A stretch of 42,784 bases of DNA from Candidatus Hodarchaeota archaeon (GTDB taxonomy: Archaea; Asgardarchaeota; Heimdallarchaeia; Hodarchaeales; Hodarchaeaceae): contig JAEOTQ010000068.1 in the NCBI GenBank assembly GCA_016839785.1, positions 1 to 42,784 of the forward strand, in the 5' to 3' direction. Positions 4,754 to 29,182 of the stretch are shown in pieces; position 1 is the first letter of the stretch, and each line of letters opens with the position of its first letter. The notes below the pieces were generated by a model. The model saw only the letters and a list, made by a program, of their open reading frames with translations, was not told the DNA's origin and made no database searches. Both the position numbers and the translations under genes were made by a program.

Positions 4754-7513
4754 ATGACGATAGCTCCGAAAAACGAAAAGGTCCTTTGGAAAAGGTATGA
4801 GTCTGCCTTAGAAGACTATACTTTAACCCGAGACCTTGACGATATGGTTGCAGTTTTCAAAGATATTGTTGAATCATCCTCTCCCAAACCTCCTATTGCA
4901 TTATTATCTAGTATCGCAAATCGTTTTGCGAAAATCAAACGCTATAATGATGCCAAACTGATCTTTGGTATGATCTTGCAAGAAGAAGGTCACCATAGGG
5001 AGACTTGGAAGGCCCTTTCCTCCCTCTACTTTAAATTAAAAGATAACAGCAAAGCTGAGTTTTGTTTACAGAAGTATTATTCACTTAAGGGAGGTAGTGT
5101 GTCTATAAATCCCTCTGTGAGAAACAGATTAGCGAGCGCAGGGAAACTCAAATCATTACCAAGTGATCAACAACTCGGTCTTCAAAAAGCAAAACAAATT
5201 CAAAATCATGCCCCCAAAAGTGTATTATCCTTAGATGAATTTTACAAACATTTTAAGATAAAGAACGAATCTCTTCCACCTGTAATCAAGCGGATTATTC
5301 AATTTGCGGAACATCAAATAGTTGATTATAGATTCTTTAATAAACAGAGCGGAGAATATGGAAAAGAGGGATTGCAGTTACTTCATAATGAAGAAATAAT
5401 TCAATATTTGAAGGAAAGAAATATTACACGGCTATACAAGTTTCAAGAGGAAGCTTTTGAGAGAATTTTATCGAATCAAGACGTAGTGATTTGTGCTCCC
5501 ACTGGCAACGGTAAGACAGAGGCCTTCCTTCTCCCCGCTCTATTGAAGATAAAAAAATTTGCAGGTTATGGGGTGCAGCTTCTAATAATTTATCCTCAAA
5601 AGGCCCTAGCTAAAGATCAGCTTAGAAAAATTACAGAGATTGCCAATATACTCAAGCTTTCAGCAGAAGTATTTGATGGTGACACCTCCCAATATAGACG
5701 CAGGAAAATCTTTGCTGATCCCCCAGAAATATTGATCACAAATCCTGATATTCTTCATTATCATCTTGGAATTGGAAAGAATTCTGGATTTTTTCAGAAT
5801 TTGATCAGTAATTTAAAAATAGTCGTGCTAGATGAAGTACATACGTTTTCGGGTACTTTTGGGAGCAATATGCACTTCATTCTTCGACGTCTAGAACGAA
5901 TTTTGGATCAGAGGATTCAATATATTGCAGCGTCTGCAACTGTAGCTAATCCTCAACTCTTTACTAGTCGCTTATTGAATCGGCCAATCACAGTAATTGA
6001 ATGTCAATATGGACGAAGAGGTCGATTACATTTCTTAATGATCGCCCCATTCGACGGTATGTCTACTTTTGATGGAATTTCAAGTTTATTGAATTCAATT
6101 AAACAATTTGGGAAAATTCTAGCTTTTCAGGATTCACATAGAAGTGCAGAATATTTATTTCAGAGATTAAGAGGATCTTCTGAAAGCATAGGAATTCATA
6201 GGGCTGGATTATCGAAGAAAATTCGTGAGGAAGTAGAAGCGCAATTCAGAGAAGGAGAAGTCGATTTGCTTATAGCCACTCCGACCTTAGAATTGGGAAT
6301 TGATATTGGTGAGCTAGAAATTGTTGTTACACCTCCAATATCTGTAAATCGTGCTATCCAGAGAATAGGTCGTGCAGGAAGAAAAGGTCAAGATGCTGTA
6401 GCAATCATCCACCTTAATTCTGATGATCCGATTAGTCATTATTACTACAGTAATCCTGAACGTTATTTTCAAGAGGTAGAAGATATTTTTTTCGACCCAA
6501 CCAATCCTAATGTGGTTGAACATCAACTTCTAGCCGCAGCTCTTGATCATCCATTAGGGATTGATGAATTTCCTGAAAATATCCCTACTATACAAGAATT
6601 AGAGGAGAATAACTATTTTCAACGATTTGAGAAAGGAATTTTTGTCCCAACAGAACAAGGTATAGAAAAAGCTCGAAAATATTCAATCAGGGGGACGAAC
6701 CATGAAATCCAAATTAAAATTCATGGTGGGAGGTATATTGGTAAACGAGCAATGCCGCTTGCGATGTATGAATTGTACCCAGGCGCTTATTATCTAGCAG
6801 GTGGGACAAGGTATCGAGTGTTTAGCTATAGATTTAATGGATATCGGGGAACTGCTGAGTTAGTAAAGCCAAAAAATGTCTGGGGGCAAACGTTTCCAGT
6901 AGCAAGGATGAAGCCTCAAATTCTAGAGGTTCAAGAACCCTTAATTGATGCTTATGGCGTTGAGGTTGGATTAGTAACGGCAAAAATTCTTCAATCAGTT
7001 GTAGGATATAGACTTCAAACCCCGTCTGGAACAGAAATTAAGAAACTACGAACTCCCCAATATTATTCCTCCCAATCTAGAGGATTATTGTTTCAAATTC
7101 CATTATCATCTCTAGATATGCAATTAGATCAGAACAGGTTTAATAATTCCTTACATACTCTTGTACATGTACTCCTTCATGCAAGTTTACCTTTTATTGG
7201 TGGCCAAATTCATGAAATTGGAGGATTAACACTCCTTCCTCAAGGATATATACTTTTATTTGATCAGGCCACTGGATATGGAATATGTGAAATGTTGTTG
7301 AGGCATTTATCCGAACTCTTTACACGAGCACGGAAAATTCTTGATTGTGACTGTCAAGATGGGTGTCCCAAATGTTGCTACTTACACCGTTGTAGTAAAA
7401 ATAATGCATCATTAGAGAAAGAGGGAGCACAAAAAATTCTTGATTATATCATACAGGGGGCGAAAATTCCCCTGGGTACGGATTATAACGAATGTAGAAT
7501 ATTTATTTCTTAA
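4754..7513 (+). CDS. SF2 DEAD/DEAH helicase of the Hrq1/SftH/YprA type (C-terminal DUF1998 Zn domain) with an N-terminal TPR-like region
   Basis: APTGNGKT, DEVH, SAT, HRAGL, TPTLELGIDIG, QRIGRAGR and C-terminal CDCQDGCPKC; N-terminal helical pattern KRYNDAKLIF..TWKALSSLYFKL..KAEFCLQK. Confidence 0.9.
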   Translation: MTIAPKNEKVLWKRYESALEDYTLTRDLDDMVAVFKDIVESSSPKPPIALLSSIANRFAKIKRYNDAKLIFGMILQEEGHHRETWKALSSLYFKLKDNSKAEFCLQKYYSLKGGSVSINPSVRNRLASAGKLKSLPSDQQLGLQKAKQIQNHAPKSVLSLDEFYKHFKIKNESLPPVIKRIIQFAEHQIVDYRFFNKQSGEYGKEGLQLLHNEEIIQYLKERNITRLYKFQEEAFERILSNQDVVICAPTGNGKTEAFLLPALLKIKKFAGYGVQLLIIYPQKALAKDQLRKITEIANILKLSAEVFDGDTSQYRRRKIFADPPEILITNPDILHYHLGIGKNSGFFQNLISNLKIVVLDEVHTFSGTFGSNMHFILRRLERILDQRIQYIAASATVANPQLFTSRLLNRPITVIECQYGRRGRLHFLMIAPFDGMSTFDGISSLLNSIKQFGKILAFQDSHRSAEYLFQRLRGSSESIGIHRAGLSKKIREEVEAQFREGEVDLLIATPTLELGIDIGELEIVVTPPISVNRAIQRIGRAGRKGQDAVAIIHLNSDDPISHYYYSNPERYFQEVEDIFFDPTNPNVVEHQLLAAALDHPLGIDEFPENIPTIQELEENNYFQRFEKGIFVPTEQGIEKARKYSIRGTNHEIQIKIHGGRYIGKRAMPLAMYELYPGAYYLAGGTRYRVFSYRFNGYRGTAELVKPKNVWGQTFPVARMKPQILEVQEPLIDAYGVEVGLVTAKILQSVVGYRLQTPSGTEIKKLRTPQYYSSQSRGLLFQIPLSSLDMQLDQNRFNNSLHTLVHVLLHASLPFIGGQIHEIGGLTLLPQGYILLFDQATGYGICEMLLRHLSELFTRARKILDCDCQDGCPKCCYLHRCSKNNASLEKEGAQKILDYIIQGAKIPLGTDYNECRIFIS

Positions 7514-7530
7514 CCAATGAATTCTCTTTT

Positions 7531-7551
7531 TACAGATTTTAGATATTTAAG
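7531..7551 (+). promoter_or_regulatory. Conserved 21-bp upstream motif, copy 2
   Basis: TACAGATTTTAGATATTTAAG, upstream of the 7626 ORF. Confidence 0.6.
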
Positions 7552-7625: not shown

Positions 7626-8810
7626 ATGATAAGTAAGAATATTTTAACTACAATTATTGGATTTCTATTTGGTTACTTGTTGTATTCTGTTATTGACATT
7701 AGTACAATATTAATATTTCTTTTTGGAGGAACAGGATATTTCATTGGCCTAATTCTTGATAATGCAGATAGGAGACTCCAAATTGACAAGTTTCATTTTT
7801 CCAATATCGCTTCTAGCCATGAAGTTTTTTACTCGGATATTCTGCCAGAAGCTGTGATTATATATTCTATGTTCGATAATATAACCACAGTCTTACTTGA
7901 TTATAAAATTGATGCAAAACCTGAAGATTATCGATTATCAGTTCTAAAAAATCTTCAAGAATTTGATTTTCGAGTTATAGAAGATTCTTCCAAGACAATC
8001 TTCTCCCTAAATATTGAATTTCCAGAATTTAACTATTCAACAATTACTAATTCTGAAACAGAGTTAGAAAAATTTCTCTACGATATAAGAGAACAAAGTA
8101 TTGATTTCCAGGGAGCTGTGCAAAAAATAATACCAGGATTAGTTCTGAGCACCATCGAAAGGCCAGATATTTTTGGGGATCAAAATCGACGTGTTTCTGA
8201 CACCGACAATTTCCCTCACTCAAGTATTCCCCCTGATTCTCCCAATGGAAGTAGAAAATTATATTCCATACTAGAGAAAGAGGATGAACTGTCTTCTAAC
8301 TCTACCGAGAGGATTGAAGAACCAGAAACTTCAGAAATAAAGACTGAAACTGAAAATGATATAATATCTGATCTATTTAGTTCTCGTTCAACCGCTCAAA
8401 TAATTTCAGAATCGGTAAATCAGACAATGAGTGAAATTACTGACTCTGATATTAAGAAACATCCAAATTTATTAACTGCGAATAAAATCAAAGAACAGAG
8501 TAAAGCAATATTCCCCCTCCAAGAGGAAGAAGAAGTGGATATTCTTCCCCAAATGGAATCTGAAAACGAATATCAACCCACAAAATTAGATCTTGAGAAT
8601 CGTAGTTCATCGAGCGAGATTAAAAATAATATTAAGAGTGAGAAGAGCTTAGATGCTCTGGAAGAGGCAGCAATCCATGAAAATGACAAACCATTATTAG
8701 CGAAAATAGTTGAACAGATAGATTTCGTAAACAGTGAACGTAAAAGTAATATAGAATCTGAATTTAATGAAAATATTAAACTAAAAGAATCATCTAAGCA
8801 AGAAACTTAG
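7626..8810 (+). CDS. Hypothetical membrane protein: two N-terminal TM helices, a globular domain and an acidic low-complexity tail
   Basis: Two hydrophobic segments in residues ~5-45; E/S-rich C-terminal half. Confidence 0.75.
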   Translation: MISKNILTTIIGFLFGYLLYSVIDISTILIFLFGGTGYFIGLILDNADRRLQIDKFHFSNIASSHEVFYSDILPEAVIIYSMFDNITTVLLDYKIDAKPEDYRLSVLKNLQEFDFRVIEDSSKTIFSLNIEFPEFNYSTITNSETELEKFLYDIREQSIDFQGAVQKIIPGLVLSTIERPDIFGDQNRRVSDTDNFPHSSIPPDSPNGSRKLYSILEKEDELSSNSTERIEEPETSEIKTETENDIISDLFSSRSTAQIISESVNQTMSEITDSDIKKHPNLLTANKIKEQSKAIFPLQEEEEVDILPQMESENEYQPTKLDLENRSSSSEIKNNIKSEKSLDALEEAAIHENDKPLLAKIVEQIDFVNSERKSNIESEFNENIKLKESSKQET

Positions 8811-9318
8811 CTAACATTGATGGACGACATTTTAAACAGTAAGACCGTCTTTGATAAAAGAATAAATATTCTCCACAATAGGAACAATGAATGTTAATCT
8901 GTGCAACAATTGGTGGTGTATTCTGATTTTCGTTTGTGTCTAGAAAATATAATCGAAACAATTTCTGCTTTTCACAATTACTTAATGGTGAATTTAGCAA
9001 AATGAGAAAAGAATTTTGTAATTGATCTTGAGAAATTAATGATTGTATTGCTAGTTCAGTTATATCCTTATTCGATGAAGGGAGGAGGGGACTTAAACTG
9101 ATCAATGCTTGAGTGGGGTCATTTCTTGATAAATAAATACGTGCTAGTTTGTGTCGAATTTCTTGATCTCGCGTTGGAGCAGTACGTAGTAAATAGTTCA
9201 AGTCACTTATTGCCTGATCAAATCGTTTTTCCTTGAGCAGGCCTTCAATCCCATTTAAGATTTCGACCTTTTTTTTCTCGTTTGGAGTACAAACTAAAAT
9301 TTTTTTCCGACTTGGGAT
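8794..9318 (-). CDS. TPR plus C-terminal zinc-ribbon protein (start extended beyond the ORF track to a probable ATC)
   Basis: Frame is open to 9342 and the extension completes a TPR (LLKEKRFDQAISDLNYLL); GGAGGGA lies 6 nt before ATC at 9318; C-terminal CSYC..CLKC. Confidence 0.65.
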   Translation of the reverse strand: MPSRKKILVCTPNEKKKVEILNGIEGLLKEKRFDQAISDLNYLLRTAPTRDQEIRHKLARIYLSRNDPTQALISLSPLLPSSNKDITELAIQSLISQDQLQNSFLILLNSPLSNCEKQKLFRLYFLDTNENQNTPPIVAQINIHCSYCGEYLFFYQRRSYCLKCRPSMLAKFLA

Positions 9319-9334: not shown

Positions 9335-9844
9335 TCAACTTTTTAATACTCGAGGACGATACCATAATGGGACGGTTGAAAAAGGAATTTTGTATCGTTT
9401 GTTCATGGCATTTACTATTACTTCTCTAATTTCAGGGTCTAAAGGTTGTTGAATTGCTGGTATCCGATTTCTTATCTTCCCCTCCCTTGAGATCGAAATA
9501 ACTCCAACTCCTACTTCTTTTGCCCAAGAGAGCTGTTCCTCCAAAGTATCTCCATTTAATATCTCAAATTGCTCGTCAGGACATAATAAATAACAATAAT
9601 CACAAAATTGACTGTAGATTGTTGGATGATTGACATGTATCTGTGTTTCTGCTTCGAAGAAGTGAATAGAACTATCCAACTGACAGATACTCGCTAAATC
9701 AATTCGAATTAAGTTCTGATTTACCATTTCAGAGATTCTAATATGTTCACTATTTCCAATTTGAAGTTCTGTATATGTTTGGAACTGAACTTCATCTCTC
9801 AAATAAAACTCTAACCGAGTAACAAGCTGATTTTCTGATAACAT
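9335..9844 (-). CDS. PD-(D/E)xK-fold protein resembling the MmcB family
   Basis: E..RIDL..IHFFEAE..YSQFCDYCYLL..GVGVI pattern; the E-x-K motif reads E-A-E. ATG at 9844 follows GAGGT. Confidence 0.55.
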   Translation of the reverse strand: MLSENQLVTRLEFYLRDEVQFQTYTELQIGNSEHIRISEMVNQNLIRIDLASICQLDSSIHFFEAETQIHVNHPTIYSQFCDYCYLLCPDEQFEILNGDTLEEQLSWAKEVGVGVISISREGKIRNRIPAIQQPLDPEIREVIVNAMNKRYKIPFSTVPLWYRPRVLKS

Positions 9845-9896
9845 AAACCTCAATTATGATTGAATTTTCCCTTTTTATACTTGAAATACTAGACTG

Positions 9897-9917
9897 TACA
9901 AATTTTGGATATTTAAG
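9897..9917 (+). promoter_or_regulatory. Conserved 21-bp upstream motif, copy 3
   Basis: TACAAATTTTGGATATTTAAG, 19/21 identical to copy 2. Confidence 0.6.
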
Positions 9918-9966
9918 TCTCATTTACCTATACTAGATGAATACAATCAGAATAGGTGAATCATGA

Positions 9967-10194: not shown

Positions 10195-10211
10195 TCGAAA
10201 AAGAATCTTCT

Positions 10212-11642
10212 TTGTTGGTAATTTGGATAGAATTAGATGTGAGTGTAGCAAAAATCAGTAAAAATCAGTCTCATAAGCTGAAATTCACCCCCGCTCTGGA
10301 TGAACAGATATTACTCGCTAAAATTCAGAAACAAAAATGTCTAATTCAATATCGTATCGAGGAAAGGTTGTATCGGATCCTGTCATTACTAATCAGTCTG
10401 TATATATCCGCAGAAAAATCACAGAAAACAATACCGAGAGTCCTTATCCTTACAAAACGACAAAACCAGGATATCATTAAAACAGGAGTACAAGATAACT
10501 TAAATCAAATTGTAACCATTCATAATGGCCAAATACTACCCCAAGCGCGGAAAATGGATTATAATCGTTTTAGTATTGTAATTTCAACTCCAAAAACGGT
10601 GAAAAATGACTATAAGCAGGAATTTTTCGTAAAGGATCACTTTTCATTGATAATAATTGATTATGCGGAGATGGGGGTGTCCTCATCTTCATTGAGATAT
10701 ATAATCAATAATTTAGAGCCCAATCAAGTAGTCGGGTTGACGAGAGAGAAAAATGTGATAAAATTGGAACAAGCTTGTATAAACTTGGAGCTATTGGAAA
10801 TCATCAAAATAGACGGAAAAATAGGGAAAGAAAGATCCAATATTCAACATTATTCACTTCCTCTACCTAAAGAATATTTTTTTGTACTAGATATTCTTAA
10901 TCAACTGAAAAAGAATAGATTAGTCCAACTTGAAAGTTTAGGATTTGGAGTGTCTATGAAAAGCACTCCTCAAGAGATTGCGGCAATTCATACGAGTTTA
11001 TTGAATGAAAACAATGGGAAAATTTTAGTGAAAACAGCAAATTTGCAACGAATCATGGCAATGCAACGGATAGTAGTTTCTCAAGGTTTTCCTGCGCTAA
11101 TCTCATTTCTTGATGATTTACTTCTTCGCCTTAGCGAGGATCAGCCGTTTGTTGGGAGAAAAGCATTGGTTCAGTTCTTAGGAAATCCTATCATCAAGAA
11201 GCTCTACGAATATATTCTCTTATTTTCTGACCTAGAACACCCAAAAATGAAACAGGTCCTGAAACTTGTAAATGATTATGAGTCTGCAGTTTCCATAGTT
11301 ACTAATAATCGCTACAATGCAACTTTCATTGAAGAAAACCTGAAGAAAAACGGGATATCTACAATATGTATTGCACAACCAGTCTCATCGCTTAAACGAA
11401 TCCAGCTTCAAAAGAAGTTATTTGCTTTTGGGAGCAAAGTGCATGTTTGTATTACAAACACAGCAAATGACCTCATAGCCAATTTAGCTAGCATCATTAT
11501 TGCATACGACGTCAATGCAGATGTTGTTGAGAAATTGAATAGTATTACAGTCCCTATTCCTAAGGTATTTTTAATTACTAAACAAACAAATGAGGAAGCA
11601 CGATTTTTCCATTTAAAGAATTTAGGGAGGGGAATCAGATAG
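10212..11642 (+). CDS. Hef/FANCM/XPF-like SF2 helicase module, apparently inactivated, with no nuclease domain
   Basis: Family landmarks RVLILT, IVISTPKTVKND, FSLIIIDYAE, VVGLT, EHPKM and LITKQTNEE are present; Walker A GKT and motif VI are absent. Confidence 0.7.
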   Translation: MLVIWIELDVSVAKISKNQSHKLKFTPALDEQILLAKIQKQKCLIQYRIEERLYRILSLLISLYISAEKSQKTIPRVLILTKRQNQDIIKTGVQDNLNQIVTIHNGQILPQARKMDYNRFSIVISTPKTVKNDYKQEFFVKDHFSLIIIDYAEMGVSSSSLRYIINNLEPNQVVGLTREKNVIKLEQACINLELLEIIKIDGKIGKERSNIQHYSLPLPKEYFFVLDILNQLKKNRLVQLESLGFGVSMKSTPQEIAAIHTSLLNENNGKILVKTANLQRIMAMQRIVVSQGFPALISFLDDLLLRLSEDQPFVGRKALVQFLGNPIIKKLYEYILLFSDLEHPKMKQVLKLVNDYESAVSIVTNNRYNATFIEENLKKNGISTICIAQPVSSLKRIQLQKKLFAFGSKVHVCITNTANDLIANLASIIIAYDVNADVVEKLNSITVPIPKVFLITKQTNEEARFFHLKNLGRGIR

Positions 11643-13376
11643 GAATTTTCTCTTCATCTTAGCATAGAAAGTATCATATGTGGTATAACATTGATTGAGA
11701 TCACGAAAAATATTTTGTCTGGGTAACATTGTTCGAAGAGTGGCTGCACGATAATCCAAGATTAAACTTGCAGCAAAATCTGTTTCTGATCGAATTCCTC
11801 TCCCTATCGCTTGTGTTATGACTCGTGTTACTGGCAAAAGGGTGAGATGATCTGCCATCTTTCTCCCCCACTTTCTTGCATAAAGGTATTTAATAAGTTG
11901 ATTTGTTGCGTCCGGTCGTGTGTAGGGTACACCAGCGATAATAATGAGAGTTAACAGACTACGTTTTGTTTGTGGATGAAGGATTTCGATACCTTCAGAT
12001 AACTTTCCACCTAGGACACCAAAAATCACTTCATGGGTTTTTCTGTGCAGATCATCAATAAAAATTGGTCTCTCACCTGACTGTTCAACATAAACGTTAG
12101 GAATGGTCATATGTACAAGAATTTGTTGTTTGAGTTCATGTGAAGGTGTGAAAACTATGGTATGAAAGGGGTTACTCTTATGCATTCGTTGAATGACCGT
12201 TGCCATAGCTTGAAAGGTTTGAGAAGTTCTTTCTCTAAATTTCGTTGTGAATCGTCTGTGATATAGAATACCATTGAGACTAAATTGAAAATCCGAGGGA
12301 ATATGCAATCCAGGAAAATTTAACCCATACAAAGTCTTATAGGAGGATACAGGTTGGAAGGTTCCCGACATCAGAAGGATGTTCTGAAAATTGTTATCCA
12401 CATATTTAAAAGTAGTTTGAGGGAACGGATTAAGTTGTATCAATTTTTCTGGTTCTGAAATCCAGATTTCTCCTCTGCTGTTTAAAAAATCTTTAATTGT
12501 AAGGAGATTATTTTGCTCCCACAAGGATAATTTGGTTTGATGATCAAGAAATGCATCTATCGCGTCTGATGTTAAATTTTGGGGACGGTCCACTCTCCCA
12601 TGTCGATTTTGAATTAATTCTTGTAGATTGTCAAATACTTTTAACGGAATAACGTTTTTTGCTTTATGGATATCATTTAAAGATATTTCTGACTCGATTT
12701 CTGCTGAAAAATTATGGCCCTCATCAATAATGCAGATTTTGTGTGGATAGGTACTTTTTTGAAGGAGGGTAGAAAGCATACTCTGCAGATTCTTGCTTCT
12801 TAGATATGTATGTGTAGTAACAATGATATTTGCGTAAGGAATGCAGCGTTTAATGATATAATATGGACACCCAAATTCCTGGAGTGTATCCTTGAAATTT
12901 TCAATCTTATTTTCCCCTTCATGAGTTGTTATGGGAACCTGTTCTACAATAGCTGGAAAATCTTCTTCAGGGATAGAACGGGCTTTTTCTAAGTGCGGAC
13001 ATCGCAGCTTCCCACATATACCCTGATAGAAAAAAGGGATATCATTTCGGATACACAAATCTGACTTCAGAATTAACGGAAGAGCAGTTAAATATCCATA
13101 TCTATTAGTATTCGCTATTTTACGGATTTCATTGAGAAACACATGGAAAATTTGAGCTTTAGTCCGTACGAAAATATAAAGCTGGTACTGTCGTGTTTTT
13201 ACTAGTGGTAAAGTACTTATTAGTGCCATTACCGTTTTTCCAAACCCAACTGGAGCATGGATAATTGCCCGTGGGTGTCGTTCGACAAATCTGAGAAATC
13301 TTGCTTGATATGCACGTAGTTCTTCATGTGGAAAAAGTTCTATTTCGGGAGGGAGGTTTATTTCCAAAGGTAGCAA
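11622..13376 (-). CDS. xpd: XPD/Rad3/DinG family Fe-S DNA helicase
   Basis: RAYQ Q-motif, APVGFGKT, four Cys (DLC, GIC, RCP, GCPYY), DEGHN, MSGT, GKLSEGI, QAIGRGIR. Confidence 0.88.
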   Translation of the reverse strand: MLPLEINLPPEIELFPHEELRAYQARFLRFVERHPRAIIHAPVGFGKTVMALISTLPLVKTRQYQLYIFVRTKAQIFHVFLNEIRKIANTNRYGYLTALPLILKSDLCIRNDIPFFYQGICGKLRCPHLEKARSIPEEDFPAIVEQVPITTHEGENKIENFKDTLQEFGCPYYIIKRCIPYANIIVTTHTYLRSKNLQSMLSTLLQKSTYPHKICIIDEGHNFSAEIESEISLNDIHKAKNVIPLKVFDNLQELIQNRHGRVDRPQNLTSDAIDAFLDHQTKLSLWEQNNLLTIKDFLNSRGEIWISEPEKLIQLNPFPQTTFKYVDNNFQNILLMSGTFQPVSSYKTLYGLNFPGLHIPSDFQFSLNGILYHRRFTTKFRERTSQTFQAMATVIQRMHKSNPFHTIVFTPSHELKQQILVHMTIPNVYVEQSGERPIFIDDLHRKTHEVIFGVLGGKLSEGIEILHPQTKRSLLTLIIIAGVPYTRPDATNQLIKYLYARKWGRKMADHLTLLPVTRVITQAIGRGIRSETDFAASLILDYRAATLRTMLPRQNIFRDLNQCYTTYDTFYAKMKRKFLSDSPP

Positions 13377-13379
13377 TCC

Positions 13380-17016: not shown

Positions 17017-17063
17017 TAATATACACCGGATTTCGTTGTATTCAAAATGGAATATGTCTGAAA

Positions 17064-17084: not shown

Positions 17085-17169
17085 AAAATTGTTTATTTAT
17101 AAACTACTTATAAAGATCAGTTTCGAATATATAAGATGTAGATTCCCCTCATTACTGAGGGTCTTTCGA

Positions 17170-20100: not shown

Positions 20101-21984
20101 GAATTACCTGAGGGTGATTACACCTGTCATGTATATGGAGAGAATTCCTATGGTATCTTATCTTATGCTTCCTCATCATTTCGAATAGATATTACTGCGC
20201 CTTCATTAATTGTTACCAGTCCAAGAAACGAGTCCTATAATACGAATACTGTGTTACTTTCGTATTTAACTAATGCAGATGATGTAAGAATATTTCTAGA
20301 CGGCAGTACAATCATCAAAAGTTCAGGTACAAGTTTGACAGAATTATCAGAAGGAGATCACAACTTAACTATCCTTGTTAGGGATACGGTAGGTAATTTC
20401 GTACTAAGGTCCTCCATTTTCAAGGTTGATACAGTTGCCCCATTTTTAACAGTGTATTCTCCCTATAATCGTAGCTACATTGAGAAGGTACCTTTGACCT
20501 TCGATTCAGATGGTCAGCTAGTCCTTTACTATATTACAGATGTTCACAGTACTAATCTAACTTTTAAATCTTCTATACAACTGTATTTACCGATTGGAAG
20601 TTATACACTCAATATTTATTCTTTTGACTCAGCTGGAAACGTTAAAACAGAGCAAATTGATTTTTCTATGGTCGAAAAGATTGACCTTTTAGTTAACTCC
20701 CACCTCACTGTAGTAAATCCTGCTGGAAATTACCTTCTAAGTACAGAGATATTATCCAACCCATATTTCGATCAAGTTGGTTTTTACTTGAATGGGAGTC
20801 ATTTCGGATTATTAACCTGGGATCCCTTTCATCAGGATTATCGAATTGCCCTTCAGTTACCCTCTCCAGGCAATTGGGAAATAAGCCTGTATGCAAGAAC
20901 AATAGATGAGAGGTATGATTTCAGAGAATTTCTTGAAATCTGGTCTCCGCCGAAGCCAATTATCACTTCTCTGTCGGTTTCATGGGAATCAAATTATTAC
21001 GAATTGAGAACAACGATTGATTCACAGTCTCTTGATCTTGATCTTGTTCAAATCTCACTAGATGAGACGAATTATAGTTTAAACAATTTTTTCGGAGATC
21101 AATGGTATGTACAAGTGTATATTAATCCACAAAATTATACTCTTAACTTAAATATATGGTATCCGTGGGATAACGAACCCTCGATAAGTAAAGAATTTGA
21201 TATTCTGTGGTATGCACCTCAAATTATTGTTGTAGACTCACATTTTGAAAGAAATGGGTTCGATTTAGAAATACGTATTGAGAAGGTAAACGCATCAATT
21301 TCTAACGATATCCCAGTAATGATATTAGAGGGCCTACCTCGAAACTACTCTGTTAACGGAAACTTAGTCTATGAATCAGCAATTGGAAGTTACCAAATAT
21401 GGCATTTCACATCCCCATGGCTAGCCCCTGATATGTGGAACTATAGTCTATCTATTTCTGATATCTATGGACAGTCTAACCAGTTTTTTGGCGTTTTCAA
21501 TTCAACAGATTCTCCACCAGAGATCGGCGATTTATCTCTAACAATTTTAGATAATACATCAACAGGGGTTTTATTTCGTATATCTGTCCAAGTCATTGAT
21601 GATTATGCTATTAGTGATGCGATTCTCTATATTAATGGTGTAGAATATTCATTCACTTTGATAAATGATTCATACATAACTCTTGATTTCTTTCTAACTC
21701 CAGGTTTATACGTTCTCCATTTATCTGTGGTAGATGATGTAAATCATGAAACTGCTAAGTGGTTAACTAATTTACATATCCAGAGTACGACTAATCTAAC
21801 CACTACTTCTGAACTAATCGATTTGACTAATCAGTCTACCCAAACGTCTCATAACTATACTCAACAAGAAGTAAAATCGCCTTCAGGTGTTAGTGGTCTA
21901 GTTGAAGTCGGTTTAGGCACAAGTTTATTTGCTACTCTTGTCGCTCTCGCTAATTCAATATTTCGAAAAAAGAGGTCTGAGTAA
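17170..21984 (+). CDS. Large (~1600 aa) secreted, C-terminally membrane-anchored Ig-like repeat surface glycoprotein, interrupted by one in-frame TAA at 18781-18783
   Basis: The two track ORFs are in the same frame, separated only by TAA. Signal peptide follows TTG 17170; beta-rich repeats (IDITAPSLIVTSP, VDTVAPFLTVYSP, DSAGN); many N-x-S/T sequons; T/S linker, TM helix and RKKR tail. Confidence 0.75.
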
Positions 21985-21985
21985 A

Positions 21986-22549
21986 ATGAAAAACAGCACT
22001 CATTATCTGTTTTCTTTAGGTTTAATAAACACATACGGGATGTTTGTCATTGATGGAAGGCTTTTCTCCTGGTTGATCATTATTCTATCAACAATTCTCA
22101 GTTTCTTTAGTTGGGTTCCTAATATACTTGATCAATACATGGGGGCACAATATGAAAATGAAGGTGTGTTATTAACGAGGAATAGACATCCATTAACGCA
22201 TTCTCCTTGGACGATATTCTATTTTCTTCCTTTCCTTTATCTTGTCCAAAAATCACATATTCCAATTTTAGAATCGATAATATCATTACTTGCAATAAGT
22301 TGGATTTCACATTTGGTGCTGGATTCCTTGAATCCAGGTGGATTACCTTTAGGAATACAACCTGTCTTTAGGAATCATCCTGTCAAACATTACAGATTTC
22401 ATTCTACAAGACCTCAAGAAACAAGACGATTACGTTTAGCAAGAATTCCATTCAATGATCCAAAAGCAAATAAGAATCTAGGACAATTTGGGTTATTCAT
22501 TTTTTCATTAAATTGTACAAGAACGTTTCTTTCATTCTTTAGGAGCTAA
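21986..22549 (+). CDS. YdjM-like membrane-bound metal-dependent hydrolase
   Basis: STHYLF, PNILD, RHPLTHS and SHLVLDSLNPGGLP motifs with TM helices; ATG 1 nt after the upstream stop. Confidence 0.75.
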   Translation: MKNSTHYLFSLGLINTYGMFVIDGRLFSWLIIILSTILSFFSWVPNILDQYMGAQYENEGVLLTRNRHPLTHSPWTIFYFLPFLYLVQKSHIPILESIISLLAISWISHLVLDSLNPGGLPLGIQPVFRNHPVKHYRFHSTRPQETRRLRLARIPFNDPKANKNLGQFGLFIFSLNCTRTFLSFFRS

Positions 22550-22555
22550 CGAGGG

Positions 22556-23614
22556 TTGTATAAAAGAAGTATGGGGCGAATAAATGTTATAGTTATCATG
22601 TTCATCATTATCCAAGGATTAACGGTCATAATTGAGGGAAATTCAACGGATTCTGTCATTCAGCAGGAGAAAAATTCTAGCTCGTATGATTTGAATTATT
22701 CTTACGTGATGAACTCACCAGAACTGACTTTTAATCGTATAATTGTATTATCTAGAAACTGGAATAAGTTATTTCTTAATTTATCGGTTCAAAATTATGG
22801 TGAACCCATTGATACAGTACTCACATCAGTTAAAATTAATAATGTACTTACTGAGCAAGCTTTTTCTAGTATTGAACGAGAAGGACTTAAAAATTGCATT
22901 GTTTACCAGTTCGACCAACCTCAATTCTTAATTATCCCCCTAAATTATTCATATCAAGAAATTCTGTCTATTTCGATTTCATTACATTTGGATTCTTTGA
23001 TATCATGGCGTGAAGTGGAATACAATTTTGCCATATTTTCTGCAATCCTTTATTCTGTTAATCTTGTAGAACCTCTAAATAACCAATCTTTAATGATTTT
23101 CTCTAATAGCTTTCAGTTCGCTCTCCAACCGTCACGAATATCATCTTTTGGAAAACGCCTACTATTGAAAAGTTTAATTCCCGTGGAGATTCCAGATAAT
23201 ATGTACCTTTCCTCAATTCTTGAAATTACAATGAGTGGTGGACGATTTGATTATGTAACTGTCAGTACAGGAACTAATTATGCGATAAATGGAAATTTCG
23301 TAAGAATCAATTCAACAGTAAACAGAAACAACCTCAAAAATCAGATTTGGCACTTAAATCTTTATATTATACCAATTATTGACTCTCAGGAAGAATATTC
23401 GTTAATCACTTTTTCTATTCAGGCTTACGGGTTTTTAAAAGAAAAAATAATCAGATATCAGAACTTGGATCTGATCAATCATCCCATCCCAGGAATTATT
23501 ATGACACCAGTTTTGATCCTACTCCTATTTGGAATTCCATATTATTATGTTTATCAGGAAGAATTGACTGAAAAAGACGATAGAATTATAGAATCTGAAT
23601 TAGGAAGAGTGTGA
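22556..23614 (+). CDS. Hypothetical secreted/membrane-anchored protein
   Basis: N-terminal hydrophobic segment, beta-rich body with sequons, C-terminal TM helix and acidic tail. Confidence 0.7.
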   Translation: MYKRSMGRINVIVIMFIIIQGLTVIIEGNSTDSVIQQEKNSSSYDLNYSYVMNSPELTFNRIIVLSRNWNKLFLNLSVQNYGEPIDTVLTSVKINNVLTEQAFSSIEREGLKNCIVYQFDQPQFLIIPLNYSYQEILSISISLHLDSLISWREVEYNFAIFSAILYSVNLVEPLNNQSLMIFSNSFQFALQPSRISSFGKRLLLKSLIPVEIPDNMYLSSILEITMSGGRFDYVTVSTGTNYAINGNFVRINSTVNRNNLKNQIWHLNLYIIPIIDSQEEYSLITFSIQAYGFLKEKIIRYQNLDLINHPIPGIIMTPVLILLLFGIPYYYVYQEELTEKDDRIIESELGRV

Positions 23615-23618
23615 AAGC

Positions 23619-24065
23619 ATGATAATCTCTTCTCAACCTTCTTTAGTTTCACCTCGTCCAAATGTCTTGATAGGGGATTATGACTCTTGTCTACACTTCA
23701 TTATTGAGAATAAATATGACGAATGGGTAGTTCCCAACCTCTTATGGATCGAGTATCGTGTAATTCCATTATCTTTTTTCTATCAGATCTCCCATCAACA
23801 TCCTAACTTGAATAGTAGTTTGTACTTCTTGGAGATGCTGTCATTCGAGGATTATAACAAAATTCTCGGTTCAAATATGCTTTCAACATTACATAAAGAT
23901 GGATTTGGATCACTGATAGTGAATTATCCTCACTTTTTTACTAACAACCATGAAAACTGGGCATTCCTCAAAAAATTGGCAAGCTCTTTGGTAGTTACTG
24001 TTATAGTTCCCAAAGATCTGTTTCCATTAGAGGAATGCACCCAAATTGTAGTTAATTCACCATGA
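23619..24065 (+). CDS. Minimal, degenerate RecA-fold-like protein
   Basis: Order of segments NVLIG, LLWIE, LYFLEMLSFED, GSLIVNY, LKKLASSLVVTVIV parallels the RadA core; no GKT. Stop overlaps the next ATG (ATGA). Confidence 0.5.
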   Translation: MIISSQPSLVSPRPNVLIGDYDSCLHFIIENKYDEWVVPNLLWIEYRVIPLSFFYQISHQHPNLNSSLYFLEMLSFEDYNKILGSNMLSTLHKDGFGSLIVNYPHFFTNNHENWAFLKKLASSLVVTVIVPKDLFPLEECTQIVVNSP

Positions 24066-24791: not shown

Positions 24792-25661
24792 CTATAAATC
24801 AAGGTCTTCGAGAGAAAGGAAATCAATTCCTGTCTTATTCGTAAGTTTTCTCGCAGGTTTTTCAGTAGGTAACCAGAATAAGACGGGTTTCTTCACTTTT
24901 CCACCTTGTGCGATATAACCCACAATAAATAAACCAATTATATACACAACAAACCATATTGTTCCCAGAAAAATTGAAAGAAAAAAATTCTGTGTTCTCC
25001 AAAGTGTATCGAACGTGAAAACGATGTATACCAATATCGCGTTATAAAACCAAAAGGGTCTAATTTGAAGATTTATCATCAAAGCATGGATCATGAAATA
25101 CCAGTCATTAATACTAGGCATTAGCACTCCGAAAATCCCAATGAAGAGATATAAATGAACTAATCCTCCCACTTGAGACGATAGAACACCTGTGTCAGCA
25201 AATATCAACGGAGTCACAATAAAATACCCGAGTAACATCACAAAAGCGAGTTTATTAGGAGCAAAAGCTACTCGTCTAGCATAGTCGAAACGATTAAATC
25301 CCATAAGAAGTCCGGGATTTTCATCTGGAACATCTATACCTGAAATTAGGGATGCACGAAGATTACCAGTATCAATGATTGGTTCCTTTTCCCCAGATTC
25401 TTTACGTGATTCAATTTCCTTTAATATCTGCTTTGCTGTGTATACATGTAAATAAACATGAATCCATCGGAAGGGGAGGAAAAATATCACTAGAATTCTT
25501 CGCAAAAAAGGGAGGAAATAGAGAGTAATTTGTAGTAATATGTAGTATGAAAATTGTTTTACAAAAAAATCTACGAAATTCTCACCCTGAATAGCCTCCA
25601 CTGCATACCAATTAATGAAATCACTAAAACTCTTTACAAGAAGGTCCAATAGTTCAACCAT
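24792..25661 (-). CDS. Multi-pass membrane protein, zinc-metalloprotease-like (M50/DUF3267-like) with HExxH changed to HVYLH
   Basis: About 6 TM segments; LPFRWIHVYLH, VAFAP and MPSIND pattern. Confidence 0.55.
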   Translation of the reverse strand: MVELLDLLVKSFSDFINWYAVEAIQGENFVDFFVKQFSYYILLQITLYFLPFLRRILVIFFLPFRWIHVYLHVYTAKQILKEIESRKESGEKEPIIDTGNLRASLISGIDVPDENPGLLMGFNRFDYARRVAFAPNKLAFVMLLGYFIVTPLIFADTGVLSSQVGGLVHLYLFIGIFGVLMPSINDWYFMIHALMINLQIRPFWFYNAILVYIVFTFDTLWRTQNFFLSIFLGTIWFVVYIIGLFIVGYIAQGGKVKKPVLFWLPTEKPARKLTNKTGIDFLSLEDLDL

Positions 25662-26439
25662 TGTTAATTACTCCCTCTGAATGTTCGCATACCAATTTAA
25701 ATTCGCATTTACTGCACGAGTTTGATTCTTTTGGTCTAAATTCATGAGATTGGAACTTTTTTATCAAAACATCTAACTTAGGTTTAAATGTTCTGGAATT
25801 ATAACTACTTATGCTATTGAACGAAATTTTCATTGATCGGTAATCAATCGAAATAATTCTAGTCAGGTCACTAGGATATAAGTTAACCAAACATAGACTA
25901 AAAATATTAGTTTGAGATTTATCTTCATTATCTCGGGGGAGGGAGTAATTTTGAATTATTGCAACTATTTTATTGTCAGAATATTGGATTAGAGCAGTTG
26001 GACTTTCCCTTATTAGGTTTTTCAGGACTTTGGTTTGAGGGAGGAATGAAATAGAGATAGGATATCTCTTTTTTTTACCCCTTTTTTCGCTTTCTTGGCT
26101 GATAGATTGCAATATAAAATTTAAGAACATGTAAACTTTAGGTGTAAAATTCTCTCCAGAAGTTAATTGGATTGGAGTATGCTTAATACAGGAATAGTCT
26201 AAAGGTAATGTTTCTCTAATTTTTTTGAAGTCACTAAAGGTATTCTCAGTTTGAATATCTAAAATTGCAGCAAGGATTGAAAAATATTGGGATGAAACTC
26301 GTTTAATGTCATTATATGCGTTTTCAACCAAACTCCAGCTAGATTCCTCAGTTAAACGTATATTTCTTATTTTATATAAATAAAAATATCGTGGGCAAGA
26401 CAAATACTGCTCCAGTATTTCTGATGTTAAGTAAGCCAT
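25654..26439 (-). CDS. Cas4/AddB-like PD-(D/E)xK-fold Fe-S protein, solo, with degenerate catalytic motifs
   Basis: N-terminal QYLSCPRYFYL and C-terminal CSKCEFKLVC (1+3 Cys staple); the expected PD and E-x-K positions read SPTAL and IIQNY. Confidence 0.7.
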   Translation of the reverse strand: MAYLTSEILEQYLSCPRYFYLYKIRNIRLTEESSWSLVENAYNDIKRVSSQYFSILAAILDIQTENTFSDFKKIRETLPLDYSCIKHTPIQLTSGENFTPKVYMFLNFILQSISQESEKRGKKKRYPISISFLPQTKVLKNLIRESPTALIQYSDNKIVAIIQNYSLPRDNEDKSQTNIFSLCLVNLYPSDLTRIISIDYRSMKISFNSISSYNSRTFKPKLDVLIKKFQSHEFRPKESNSCSKCEFKLVCEHSEGVINNG

Positions 26440-26452
26440 TGTACACCCATTT

Positions 26453-26911
26453 TTACATAATTATTTCAATATCCTCGAACTCTATCCGGTGAAATCGAGA
26501 TTTCAATAAACCTCTTGAAAGGAGAAACATGACTTTCTGAATACGATCCTCAGATGAAGCGCCAAAAGCCTGTAAAGTAATTTTAGTCTCCGAAATAATC
26601 CTCACACCTAATCCAATCAATTGTCGATTTGCTAGATCTGAGTAATTGATGAATTGGATGAACAGGCCACTATTTTCAATGAAACTTCTAAGATCACTTC
26701 TGGAGATCATATTAGATGCTTTTCCTGAATAATAAGGTAATATCGCTTCTAATTGAGCAGCTCCCTCCTTGTAAACTTGTCTAACTATTACAAATTCCTC
26801 TATGGTCCAATATGTCTCAGTAATCATGATAATATCGAATTTTCCTAAAGATAATCCGAAAAATAAGTTATCATAGATAACTATATGGGGATCCTGTAAT
26901 AAATTTGTCAT
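26453..26911 (-). CDS. Hypothetical protein
   Basis: First gene of a three-gene minus-strand unit; ATG at 26911 preferred over TTG at 26986; no recognised motif. Confidence 0.6.
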   Translation of the reverse strand: MTNLLQDPHIVIYDNLFFGLSLGKFDIIMITETYWTIEEFVIVRQVYKEGAAQLEAILPYYSGKASNMISRSDLRSFIENSGLFIQFINYSDLANRQLIGLGVRIISETKITLQAFGASSEDRIQKVMFLLSRGLLKSRFHRIEFEDIEIIM

Positions 26912-27034
26912 CCTGATAAAGCCTCGAAGAAAAATTGTTCTTCTAATACTGATTATGTACAGAGCATATATACTCAAAATCAACACAGAAATCGAGATAC
27001 TTATAATACGGTAAACTCAATTTAGAATTGAAAG

Positions 27035-27326: not shown

Positions 27327-28664
27327 CTAAATTGGGGTAATTTCTTCTGATTCCTCTAAGTTGATATCAGCTAGAAGCCTAGGTTTAATCTTAAAATACC
27401 GGTCTTCATAGTTTACCAAGTCAGGTAACTTGAGTGATACAATTGTCTTTACTGTGTGGGTCAATGCTTCCTCAGCATCAAGCTTAATCCATGGTAAACT
27501 CTTATTTTCAACACGTTCAACATTTAATAATGGTAATAATGAGTGAAAGCTAGATCGAAAAGGTAATTGGAATTCATAGGTTTCTTCTGCGCCTAAAAAC
27601 CAAACTCGTTTATGATGTAATTGATTTTTCCTATCAGAAACTGTAATCAAAACGGGTATATGATCCATCTGAGGTGGAAGAGCTGAAATAGTAATTAATG
27701 CCGAAAATTTCTTTTTTCCTTTCTTGGAAACCTTCATTTCACAATGCCATTCTGGAGCTGGTTCTTTATTCAACCATCGGTTATAAAACTCCTTCACCTG
27801 AGAAAAATATTCATCTGGCCAAGTATCTCGAATCCCCCCTGTTGGGAGAAGAGCGCTTTCAACCCAAAGCTGCTTAGGTTTGTATAAAGAGGTAAAGTTT
27901 CGAATAATATTCTGATTGGGTTGATCTTTGTGATCAAAAACTGAAATGAGAAATGTAGGGCAGGAATGGAGCATAGATAGAGAATGATGTCTATCCCATC
28001 TAGTCCTCCACAGAAATGGCCAGAGTAATACTCGTGTCAGAAATCTGAAGAAAGAGACACCAAAACCAGAATAGGGTAGATTACATGTAATTAACGTACT
28101 TAAAGGGATAGGTCCATTTTCAAGGATAACTGCTTTTATTGGTTGGTCTTTTACCAAAGCACTCGCCAATAATGTACTAAGTGATTCGCTATATATTGCA
28201 ATTTTCCGTTTGTCAAGATTATCTCTGGAGATAAGATATTCGTATGCTTTTATGATCGTTAAAGTGTAATATCTTGGGGAATAGTTCTTTTTTAGGAGAA
28301 GTCGAGTTGACTCATCAATGATATGAATAACGGGGAGTAAAACATTGAACCCCATTAGTTGCAGTACTCCAGATGTTTTCAAACTATTTTCAAACGAACG
28401 CTCATTAATCCAATCAGGGATCATGAGAATGGTGGAATCATTTTCTTGCTTGCTGGGAAAGAACCAGGCTTTTTGCAATTTATCTTTGACAGGAAAGGAA
28501 ATCGGGATGGCTTCTAGGCCAAAATCACTCGGAAGATTCACAGGAAGATCCTTCCGTGCAGTAAAATAGATATAGAGATACGGGATGATCTCGGTACGAC
28601 GAATAATAATGACTAAGCAGATCAGTAGAATAAAGACTACTCCAAGCAATAAAGGATCAACCAT
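27327..28664 (-). CDS. Membrane-anchored alpha/beta-hydrolase-fold protein with a degenerate nucleophile elbow
   Basis: N-terminal TM; LQKAWFFP, GFNVLLP, AYEYL..LDKRKIAIYSESLS, IKAVILEN, PTFLI, PKQLWV. Confidence 0.7.
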   Translation of the reverse strand: MVDPLLLGVVFILLICLVIIIRRTEIIPYLYIYFTARKDLPVNLPSDFGLEAIPISFPVKDKLQKAWFFPSKQENDSTILMIPDWINERSFENSLKTSGVLQLMGFNVLLPVIHIIDESTRLLLKKNYSPRYYTLTIIKAYEYLISRDNLDKRKIAIYSESLSTLLASALVKDQPIKAVILENGPIPLSTLITCNLPYSGFGVSFFRFLTRVLLWPFLWRTRWDRHHSLSMLHSCPTFLISVFDHKDQPNQNIIRNFTSLYKPKQLWVESALLPTGGIRDTWPDEYFSQVKEFYNRWLNKEPAPEWHCEMKVSKKGKKKFSALITISALPPQMDHIPVLITVSDRKNQLHHKRVWFLGAEETYEFQLPFRSSFHSLLPLLNVERVENKSLPWIKLDAEEALTHTVKTIVSLKLPDLVNYEDRYFKIKPRLLADINLEESEEITPI

Positions 28665-28738
28665 AGTTCAAACTCACTTCCAATGGGGTACAATCAAAAC
28701 CTGTCTTAAAATAGGTATGGAAATTTAGTTAATATAAA

Positions 28739-29182
28739 TTATTTTGATAGAAGGCGTGAGTCCATTTCTTTTTCAATTTTTTTCAACGAAGCTATCATTG
28801 ATTCAAGGAATTGATTGTGTTCTTCAAATGTCGCATTTAGTTCCTTCAAAATATCAGCATTGGCTCTCTGAAACTCCCTAATTAAGCTCACTTTGTGTGC
28901 TTTTTGGTTTAAAGGATTTGTATGTTTGAAATCCCATTCACGCTTAAGAGCAAGCTTGCGTGAAGAATATTTTTCTAAATAAACTAGCTCAATTGGTTGT
29001 TTACGAGTGATTCGTGCACCTTTGGTACTATTTACTCCTATATGTTGGGTAAGACGATTTATAAGATGATGAGTATAACCTGTGTAAATTTTCCTGTTAA
29101 ACCCACGTGATTTTTCTCCCACAAGGAGCATATAGACCCAAAACGGCAATTTGAAACCCAGCTTCAGAAAGATTTCTGTCAC
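28739..29182 (-). CDS. GIY-YIG nuclease (UPF0213/Slx1-like)
   Basis: WVYML..IYTGYT..RLTQH..GARITR..PIELVYLE..ALKRE. Confidence 0.88.
   Translation of the reverse strand: MTEIFLKLGFKLPFWVYMLLVGEKSRGFNRKIYTGYTHHLINRLTQHIGVNSTKGARITRKQPIELVYLEKYSSRKLALKREWDFKHTNPLNQKAHKVSLIREFQRANADILKELNATFEEHNQFLESMIASLKKIEKEMDSRLLSK

Follow-up and report, generated by a model that had tools for sequence, protein, structure and literature searches.

The question raised by the locus described here is whether a dense block of DNA repair and recombination genes, in which intact enzymes alternate with catalytically altered relatives and with membrane and surface proteins, constitutes a functional unit. The window, that is, the whole stretch of DNA analysed, comprises 42,784 nucleotides of a Candidatus Hodarchaeota archaeon (contig JAEOTQ010000068.1) and has a composition of approximately 36% GC with no compositional break; the block at 4754-29182 contains 19 open reading frames (ORFs) of 135-1053 aa. 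The original prediction had proposed, from the letters alone, an undescribed membrane-linked repair or DNA-acquisition system in a probable Asgard archaeon, and the host was guessed correctly (Hodarchaeales). The answer reached here is that the segment ~4754-25661 would represent the Hodarchaeales version of an undescribed module for stalled-fork or crosslink repair and recombination, a reading to which we give about an even chance. As part of this best explanation, the neighbourhood would have been vertically inherited in Asgard archaea and would serve the processing of damaged or stalled DNA. None of the papers listed by literature searches described such a neighbourhood.

The proposed system had been expected to remain linked in related genomes, and for some of the genes linkage was verified out to the distance of class and phylum, with membrane and immunoglobulin-like (Ig-like) proteins among the neighbours. 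The families compared at class level are designated f1 to f7, of which f1 is the window's own family and f2 its sister family within Hodarchaeales, while f9, f15, f20 and f22 are other Asgard families. The recurring core consists of MmcB-like, HerA-like and RadB-like proteins, XPD and a repair helicase, which is Hef, Hel308-like or YprA. Often present as well are RadA, Big_3_5 Ig-like surface proteins and a polytopic membrane protein, and the core was seen in five Heimdallarchaeia families and four other Asgard families.

On one strand of an f2 contig, HerA-like and XPD are found with a transmembrane (TM) protein, an MmcB-like protein in fused form (333 aa) and a protein homologous to the first Ig-like protein of the window, and on a second f2 contig a YprA-like helicase (1168 aa) lies 5 kb from the XPD-HerA-like pair. 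Three f3 genera carry, again on one strand, a string of TM/low-complexity, Yip1-like, RadB-like, MmcB-like, HerA-like (1051-1106 aa) and Hel308-like genes that overlap or nearly abut; XPD is located 11-19 kb from MmcB-like in the three f3 genomes (two genera) in which both share one contig, and in one f3 genus the core string is followed by giant surface proteins and then by XPD. The f6 arrangement is compact, with Yip-like, a 204-aa protein, XPD and MmcB-like, and, divergently, HerA-like (1208 aa), a 561-aa protein and canonical Hef. The order in f4 is RFC-like, XPD, a 1704-aa Big_3_5 protein, two unknowns, Yip1-like, RadB-like, Hef, a 1034-aa protein and MmcB-like. Among the other Asgard families, a single strand in f15 carries the genes of a 1040-aa protein, MmcB-like, RadA and XPD. 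In f22 a Big_3_5 protein is encoded directly upstream of MmcB-like, Hel308, a 312-aa protein and Yip-like come after it, and RadA is close by. A homologue of the window Ig-like proteins accompanies a 1414-1417-aa protein and an MmcB-like fusion in f20, and in f9 an Ig-like homologue (E 3e-87) lies 3 kb from MmcB-like. Altogether, XPD neighbours core genes in f1, f2, f4, f6 and f15, and MmcB-like and XPD are 0-19 kb apart in all eight outgroup genomes with both genes on one contig, including two complete f3 genomes of 3.1-3.3 Mb. The same families are thus kept close while order, strand and helicase change, and therefore selection for proximity, rather than slow decay of synteny, is indicated.

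Families were assigned to the window ORFs by Pfam and NCBIfam scans in which each model's own score threshold served as the cut-off. The features of the block are given below with the basis of each description, where one applies, in brackets.

4754..7513, plus strand: DEAH helicase of the YprA/MrfA/Hrq1 type, extended by ~210 aa at the N-terminus and with an MrfA Zn-binding domain at the C-terminus (Pfam, NCBIfam)
7626..8810, plus strand: protein with an N-terminal TM segment and an acidic low-complexity tail, downstream of YprA (sequence)
8794..9201, minus strand: small protein ending in a CxxC...CxxC motif region, encoded downstream of MmcB-like (sequence)
9335..9853, minus strand: MmcB-like protein of PD-(D/E)XK fold, core component (AF2 and Foldseek)
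10212..11642, plus strand: Hef-like superfamily 2 (SF2) pseudo-helicase without a nuclease domain (NF010337, 1wp9)
11622..13376, minus strand: XPD/Rad3-family helicase, apparently intact, starting 3 nt after the HerA-like stop (Pfam)
13380..15641, minus strand: HerA/FtsK-fold pseudo-ATPase, core component (AF2 and Foldseek)
16000..17016, minus strand: RadA recombinase (NF003301)
17089..21984, plus strand: two Ig-like (Big_3_5, Big_13) surface proteins (Pfam, sequence)
21929..24065, plus strand: three small proteins, one polytopic and YdjM-like, one of 352 aa with TM segments at both ends and one of 148 aa
24062..24763, plus strand: divergent RadB-like small RecA-family ATPase, core component (TIGR02237, hhalign)
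24792..25661, minus strand: polytopic membrane protein with HVxxH (alignment, atlas leads)
25654..26986, minus strand: Cas4-like protein (25654-26439) and the 177-aa protein upstream of it (26453 ORF)
27327..29182, minus strand: membrane-anchored alpha/beta-hydrolase-like protein (27327-28664) and GIY-YIG nuclease (28739-29182)

At least seven of these ORFs had been claimed as disabled enzymes, a count that was sustained for Hef-like, HerA-like and Cas4-like, failed for the RecA-fold protein and was upheld in part for the MmcB-like, HExxH-like and hydrolase proteins. In the case of the MmcB-like protein, the PD-(D/E)XK fold stood: the AF2 model has a predicted local distance difference test score (pLDDT) of 91.7, and its best Foldseek match is 3dnx (E 1.7e-5, TMt 0.64), which we take to be a representative of the MmcB-like family, followed by SfsA, AF1548, Cas4, NucC and NucS. 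Contrary to the claim, the protein is not called dead, given that E29, D52, E67 and E69 are invariant in 16 sequences, and on the strength of these acidic residues it may be an active nuclease; the usual catalytic Lys position is occupied by Glu. No Pfam family, including the MmcB family itself (PF06319 / IPR009394), matched at E<=1, and the protein family comprises 37 clusters, none with a Pfam domain and all the named ones "hypothetical". A profile search found it in single copy in 61 of 83 Heimdallarchaeia genomes (f1 19/21, f2 2/2, f3 27/31, f4 11/12, f6 1/1) and found a copy in only 6 of 189 other Asgard genomes, and across lineages the relationship is recovered by hhalign with a probability of 99.6%.

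A further candidate explanation considered for this protein was the replacement of the Holliday junction resolvase Hjc. Passages of PMC7776575 state that Hjc is present in all archaea. A search for Hjc (PF01870) found it in none of the 24 Hodarchaeales genomes (G000-G023; completeness 70-99%); it is present in f3 (30/31 genomes), f4 (11/12), f7 (3/3) and f6 (1/1). As a general explanation, replacement was rejected because both proteins co-occur in f3, f4 and f6 and f5 mostly lacks both.

The RecA-fold protein had been listed among the altered enzymes; however, G-x-x-G-x-GK[ST] and the Walker B Asp are kept in all ten genus members. The 233-aa protein, without a helix-hairpin-helix (HhH) domain, matched the RadB model TIGR02237 with E 4.9e-7 and 29.8 bits, compared with 87.5 bits for the f4 and 53.6 bits for the f3 protein and a cut-off of 172.4, and hhalign related it to the RadB-like proteins of the f4 and f3 clusters with probabilities of 95.4% and 93.3%, respectively. 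Judged by these motifs and profiles, it is a divergent RadB-like ATPase rather than a dead one.

The alteration claimed for the HerA-like ORF was confirmed. Pfam DUF87 matched it with E 0.013 and 16 bits against a gathering score of 23.2, and the AF2 model of its 753 aa (pLDDT 64, predicted template modelling score 0.55) retrieved 113 PDB matches at E<=0.001 in Foldseek, led by DndH-C, Sir2-associated and archaeal HerA, VirB4 and TrwB (E 4.7e-9 to 1e-5 for DndH-C, HerA, VirB4 and TrwB). The Walker A position of the window protein reads CGSDKNE, and neither GK[ST] nor a conserved Lys was found in the eight aligned members or in the inspected representatives; a possible winged-helix region is located near residues 509-573. 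The family is small, with 47 relatives among 1.84 billion representatives, and PDB sequence searches with the HerA-like and MmcB-like profiles returned nothing significant. Profiles link the window protein to the large proteins beside MmcB-like in f3, f6, f4, f15 and f20: f1/f2 and f3 are connected by hhalign (74.9%, E 2.6e-5, 491 columns) and by a BLAST bridge through P0075, and f3 and f6 by hhalign at 97.8%. Complex prediction for HerA-like with MmcB-like gave a score of 0.43 (best of three controls, 0.00), with partner pLDDT of at least 74 and runs agreeing in at least 3% of contacts. Of 80 solved complexes, 58 reach the mark applied, as do 2 of 110 mismatched pairs; at scores <=0.60 it is reached by only 7 of the 80 and by both passing mismatches, so that the result lends weak support to a predicted complex of the two proteins.

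The catalytic alteration of the Hef-like ORF was likewise borne out, with motif I gone and motif II degenerate in the six aligned members. The protein matched the Hef model NF010337 with E 1.3e-20 over profile positions 46-394 of 781, the helicase part only, at 73.1 bits, far under the cut-off of 610, and the helicase structure of Pyrococcus furiosus Hef (1wp9) with E 1.1e-10. In all six members GxGKT of motif I is replaced, for example by YRIEERL, and DEAH of motif II has become DYAE, NQAE or similar. Full-length orthologues occur in 19 of the 21 other genus genomes; outside the genus no such paralogue was found in 19 outgroup genomes (41 genomes searched in total), in which canonical Hef alone matched. 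Most genus members carry approximately 130 extra conserved C-terminal residues, for which no Pfam match was found, and the window's clade has lost this domain. Long forms are located at L008:1450-3399, L012:1459-3378 and L009:1432-3387. An XPF-like nuclease domain in these ~650-aa forms was considered and ruled out, with no Pfam match to ERCC4 or HhH2 in the 476-aa window protein or in the 602-650-aa forms. As for canonical Hef, genome G000 has a 522-aa helicase frame (G000:C57:2330-3394), compared with ~750 aa in most genus members, and ERCC4 domains on other contigs only, in frames of 255 and 145 aa (G000:C14:6656-7018; G000:C63:2353-2685); read from these frames, Hef may be split or truncated in the window's clade.

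The enzymes claimed as intact, namely the Hrq1-type helicase, XPD, RadA and GIY-YIG, appear to be so by Pfam and NCBIfam scores and by their visible motifs. YprA carries DEAD (E 1.6e-36), Helicase_C and the MrfA Zn-binding domain (MZB), all over the Pfam cut-offs, together with the motifs GNGKT and DEVH, and matched TIGR03817 with E 3.1e-86. XPD has DEAD_2 and Helicase_C_2 in Pfam, with GFGKT, DEGH and four Cys present; RadA, with HHH_5 and Rad51 domains, scored 346.8 bits against NF003301 (cut-off 259), and GIY-YIG 43.5 bits against a cut-off of 22.6. The genus genomes have 3-5 RadA-like genes each, and the window RadA belongs to a clade found only in Hodarchaeales (f1 and f2; support 93/99) within a tree whose backbone is unresolved. 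The additional RadA proteins comprise two f1-specific full-length paralogues and a class-wide clade of ~320 aa (G000 contigs C150, C207 and C137). A second XPD-like gene, with 32-34% identity to the window XPD, lies 11 kb from a RadA-like gene (G000:C137:8757-9650, 20472-22193; L039/L040), and such an XPD-like/RadA-like pair was also seen on one contig of G019.

Whether the altered genes are decaying was assessed by the ratio of nonsynonymous to synonymous substitutions (dN/dS), calculated by the Nei-Gojobori method (NG86) between the window genes and two relatives. The disabled genes were not decaying: they are full-length in all relatives compared, and their ratios range from 0.07 to 0.29, none near 1, although the values are rough because dS exceeds 1 (saturated) in nearly all comparisons. 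Ratios of 0.07-0.09 were obtained for Hef-like, 0.09 for the hydrolase, 0.09-0.15 for MmcB-like, 0.13-0.15 for HerA-like, 0.25-0.29 for RadB-like and 0.29 for Cas4-like; XPD and RadA, as comparison values, gave 0.04-0.05, and the HVxxH membrane protein 0.04.

The right-hand part of the block is of a different standing. The Cas4-like protein has weak C-terminal matches to PDDEXK_1 (E 8.4e-4) and to cas4 (E 1.6e-3; TIGR00372, 18.3 bits against 65), and its claimed alteration was supported by the replacement of motif II and III residues in six genus members, in which the motif II Asp has become Ser/Thr and ExK has become Q-x-Y/W/F; the four Cys are kept in all six, and QxxxY in four, the others having QxxxF or xxxxV. 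For the alpha/beta hydrolase, the family is given by an atlas lead of 0.94 only, and the nucleophile Ser, in an elbow of the type S-x-S-x-S/G, is replaced in two of six members. When the examined outgroup loci were searched with profiles of Cas4-like, the 26453 ORF, the hydrolase and GIY-YIG, no counterpart came up; Cas4-like, the hydrolase and GIY-YIG are genus-level neighbours only, and the 26453 protein, like Cas4-like, is known from the genus alone.

The composition of the block is also reminiscent of an anti-virus or anti-plasmid defence island, since DUF1998/MZB helicases, HerA partners, Cas4-like and PD-(D/E)XK proteins are typical defence components. The Foldseek matches of HerA-like include the DndH, Sir2-HerA and DUF4297-HerA defence complexes, YprA has NCBIfam side-matches to DpdJ/DpdF and Cas3, and the Cas4-like gene evolves fast (21-46% identity inside the genus). 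Nevertheless, MmcB-like, which is the only core gene that was surveyed, never exceeds one copy in a matching genome and is distributed along family lines, the locus holds the genus's main XPD and, in other families, canonical Hef, the GC content is uniform, and no integrase was found among the window ORFs in the Pfam and NCBIfam scans. A defence island is very unlikely.

The membrane and surface proteins said to lie among the repair genes are present as described, by Pfam and by sequence. The first Ig-like protein has an N-terminal hydrophobic segment, the second has its membrane anchor at the C-terminus, N-x-S/T sequons are numerous in both, and their genes open a co-directional string that ends in RadB-like and includes the small genes at 21929-24065, which are conserved in the genus. 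The TM protein at 7626-8810 has no family match in Pfam or NCBIfam, and its gene still adjoins YprA where YprA has relocated. The HExxH-like claim probably refers to the polytopic protein at 24792-25661, in which H-V-x-x-H is invariant in 14 members; a pattern search for HExxH over all ORFs had no match, and the only family leads are weak atlas values of 0.81-0.82 to M50B and DUF3267 zincin clusters. Candidate homology of the window proteins 21929, 22556, 23619, 24792, 7626, 26453 and 8794 to outgroup membrane proteins was rejected (hhalign <=1.3%), and the Yip1-like profile A5 found nothing in the window's genome (84.5% complete). As a side observation on surface proteins elsewhere, the one between the f3 core string and XPD in genome G028 (L061:11475-19415) has 2646 aa and carries dozens of acidic repeats of the type D-x-D-x-D-G...P-D-G-W-E.

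These proteins raise the alternative of an envelope-coupled DNA uptake or exchange that feeds recombination, a functional analogue of the Sulfolobales Ups/Ced systems. The Ig-like proteins would capture DNA or mediate contact, a conduit would be formed or gated by the polytopic proteins together with the VirB4/TrwB-like HerA-fold protein, the ATPase activity would come from RadB-like, and MmcB-like, the helicases and RadA would process and integrate the incoming DNA. Surface or membrane genes do share strands or strings with RadB-like, MmcB-like or XPD in f1, f2, f3, f4, f6 and f22; in f2, f9 and f20, homologues of the window Ig-like proteins are again encoded beside MmcB-like (hmmsearch E 2e-14 to 3e-87); the HerA-like matches include VirB4 (TMt 0.65) and TrwB; and the HVxxH gene is found just upstream of a relocated HerA-like, on the same strand, at three loci (L047, L048 and L049). 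However, the HerA-fold protein cannot be a conventional translocase, because no member has the P-loop lysine; no pilin, secretion ATPase or Ced homologue turned up, no search aimed at them having been made; these genomes may contain Ig-like proteins in large numbers generally; and the lineages differ in their membrane families. An uptake system is thus unlikely. A broader envelope-to-chromosome machine can be conceived, in which a motor-dead HerA/VirB4-like scaffold and RadB-like would couple the Ig-like surface proteins and polytopic membrane proteins to the nuclease, the helicases, XPD and a private RadA paralogue, and we regard it as improbable to the same degree; no less doubtful is the corresponding function, in which DNA would be taken in or exchanged and recombined, or damaged DNA would be tethered at the membrane for repair.

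Inside the genus, synteny was followed by searching the 40 kb that surround Hef-like in 10 same-genus genomes with the window ORFs (tblastn). MmcB-like was located near Hef-like in all ten, YprA and RadA in nine each, XPD and RadB-like in eight each and HerA-like in five, and the 8794-9201 gene accompanies MmcB-like and Hef-like in nine of the ten loci. The proposal that 4754-29182 constitutes a single system did not hold: the flanking genes are equally syntenic, and the complete genome G016 scatters the block, with the trio of 8794, MmcB-like and Hef-like kept together at 1.30 Mb, RadA-XPD at 2.41 Mb, YprA with its TM neighbour, GIY-YIG and a large membrane protein at 0.79 Mb, and HerA-like at 0.25 Mb.

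This bears on the possibility that the neighbourhood is inherited synteny without common function, in a slowly rearranging region of the Asgard chromosome. Within the genus, the flanking LuxC-like and AMP-binding genes, present in 6 of 10 loci, are as syntenic as the repair genes, inversions occur, the block is broken in several genomes without gene loss, and XPD, Hef and RadA are general repair genes. On the other hand, linkage survives between families and classes at only ~25-45% orthologue identity despite reshuffled order and strand, genes overlap within strings, and the two complete f3 genomes disperse YprA, Hef and RadA paralogues yet keep the core together. Inherited synteny alone is unlikely as the explanation.

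Several observations weigh against the repair and recombination module as proposed here. The apparent linkage signal is inflated because related genomes, sharing inherited synteny, are not independent, and the helicase slot is filled by different families across lineages. The MmcB-like profile found no copy in f5 (0/12) or f7 (0/3). Linkage is loose within the genus: G016 divides the block into at least four places, and G010, G016 and G012 have HerA-like on a different contig from XPD and MmcB-like or at a distance of 0.6-2 Mb from them (0.6 Mb from XPD in G010, another contig in G012). Among 17 genus HerA-like loci, XPD adjoins eight and YprA two, and seven have no window repair gene within 10 kb. 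Additionally, the AF2 model of this protein is mediocre (pLDDT 64), the hhalign probability between the f3 protein and those of f4, f15 and f20 is just 64-81%, and the 921-aa neighbour in f22 is an Ig-like protein and not HerA-like. Finally, no homology could be detected between the window membrane proteins and the Yip1-like protein that other lineages have.

The core is nonetheless read as a fork or crosslink repair module because of the roles of Hef, Hel308, Hjc, RadB, MrfA and MmcB in mitomycin damage or recombination. Passages of PMC7776575 describe Hef, Hel308 and Hjc mutants as mitomycin-sensitive, RadB as mediating RadA loading, and Hjc as binding Hel308 and HerA; likewise, parts of PMC13705206 report that MrfA and MmcB protect bacteria from mitomycin damage. 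In the mechanism proposed, one or more fork or crosslink-repair helicases, of a different kind from lineage to lineage (Hef, Hel308-like, YprA/MrfA), would remodel branched or adducted DNA, MmcB-like would cut the remodelled substrate, and RadB-like, a probable recombination mediator, would act with RadA in restart by recombination. The HerA-like protein, devoid of its P-loop, would probably serve as a scaffold or DNA-binding platform rather than as a motor, and the motor-dead Hef copy would have been added in this genus, probably as a non-catalytic partner. We infer a physical complex, the substrates named above and a role for the membrane and Ig-like proteins.

As for the remaining sequence, a shared regulatory motif was sought in eight intergenic regions, and none was found beyond a TATA-like 9-mer in three of the eight. 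This 9-mer, CTTAAATAT, occurs on either strand in the intergenic regions 4613-4753, 9854-10211 and 17017-17088 and five times in the whole window, and its sequence resembles an archaeal TATA box more than a specific operator. Beyond the block, a 1027-aa polytopic membrane protein with no family match in Pfam or NCBIfam is encoded at 29282-32365, divergent from GIY-YIG, and the pair is kept together in G016, where the block is split. A 113-aa ORF (32378-32719) matches positions 1-67 only of the HMGL-like domain and possibly represents a truncated gene.

Compared with known systems, the locus resembles the HerA-nuclease modules (archaeal HerA-NurA; bacterial Sir2-HerA and DUF4297-HerA), in which a HerA/FtsK-fold protein is located beside a small nuclease-fold protein and helicases. 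It differs in that the P-loop lysine is lost throughout the family, the partner is MmcB-like and not NurA, Sir2 or DUF4297, and the window HerA-like has an extra C-terminal helical or winged-helix part; with respect to HerA-NurA, no Mre11-Rad50 turned up among the locus ORFs scanned. The window helicase shares the DEAD, Helicase_C and MZB architecture of MrfA from the MrfA(YprA)-MrfB pair, and no MrfB-type exonuclease turned up among the window ORFs scanned. We know of no linkage between MrfA and MmcB. The small protein of the window has the structure 3dnx as its best match, without a sequence match to the MmcB Pfam family (E<=1), and parts of PMC13705206 describe bacterial MmcB as almost exclusive to Alphaproteobacteria.

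The same types of players as in the euryarchaeal RadB/Hjc/Hef/Hel308 network are present, namely RadB-like, Hef/Hel308, a PD-(D/E)XK nuclease and a HerA-type protein. However, the Asgard genes are clustered, the nuclease is not Hjc, which co-exists with it in f3, f4 and f6, and the Asgard RadB-like proteins score under the RadB cut-off. RadB is described as restricted to Euryarchaea in passages of PMC7776575; the present results place RadB-like proteins, together with several RadA paralogues, outside Euryarchaeota. Two unannotated families, MmcB-like and HerA-like, are hereby tied to XPD, Hef, Hel308 and RadA over phylum-scale distances, and the locus supplies concrete, expressible candidates for biochemistry.

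In the Sulfolobales Ups/Ced systems, too, envelope proteins and a HerA/VirB4-like protein are tied genetically to recombinational repair. The P-loop of the window HerA-like is dead, and the likeness is one of description, pilus genes having neither turned up nor been searched for. If the envelope proteins do belong to the module, they would connect the cell surface with genome maintenance in a new way, and an envelope-to-chromosome machine, if real, would have no described counterpart.

Lastly, those eukaryotic members of the XPF/FANCM family that have an inactive helicase-like domain find a likeness in the Hef-like protein, whose ATP motifs are lost and which is under purifying selection; it differs in having no detected ERCC4 or HhH domain. 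Because it is restricted to one genus among the 41 genomes searched, Hef-like represents a parallel case to XPF and not an ancestor of it. Hodarchaeales and other Heimdallarchaeia are placed closest to eukaryotes among archaea, and for this reason their repair toolkit bears on the origin of the eukaryotic one; the conserved and constrained pseudo-enzymes derived from Hef and HerA display a habit that is typical of eukaryotic repair complexes.

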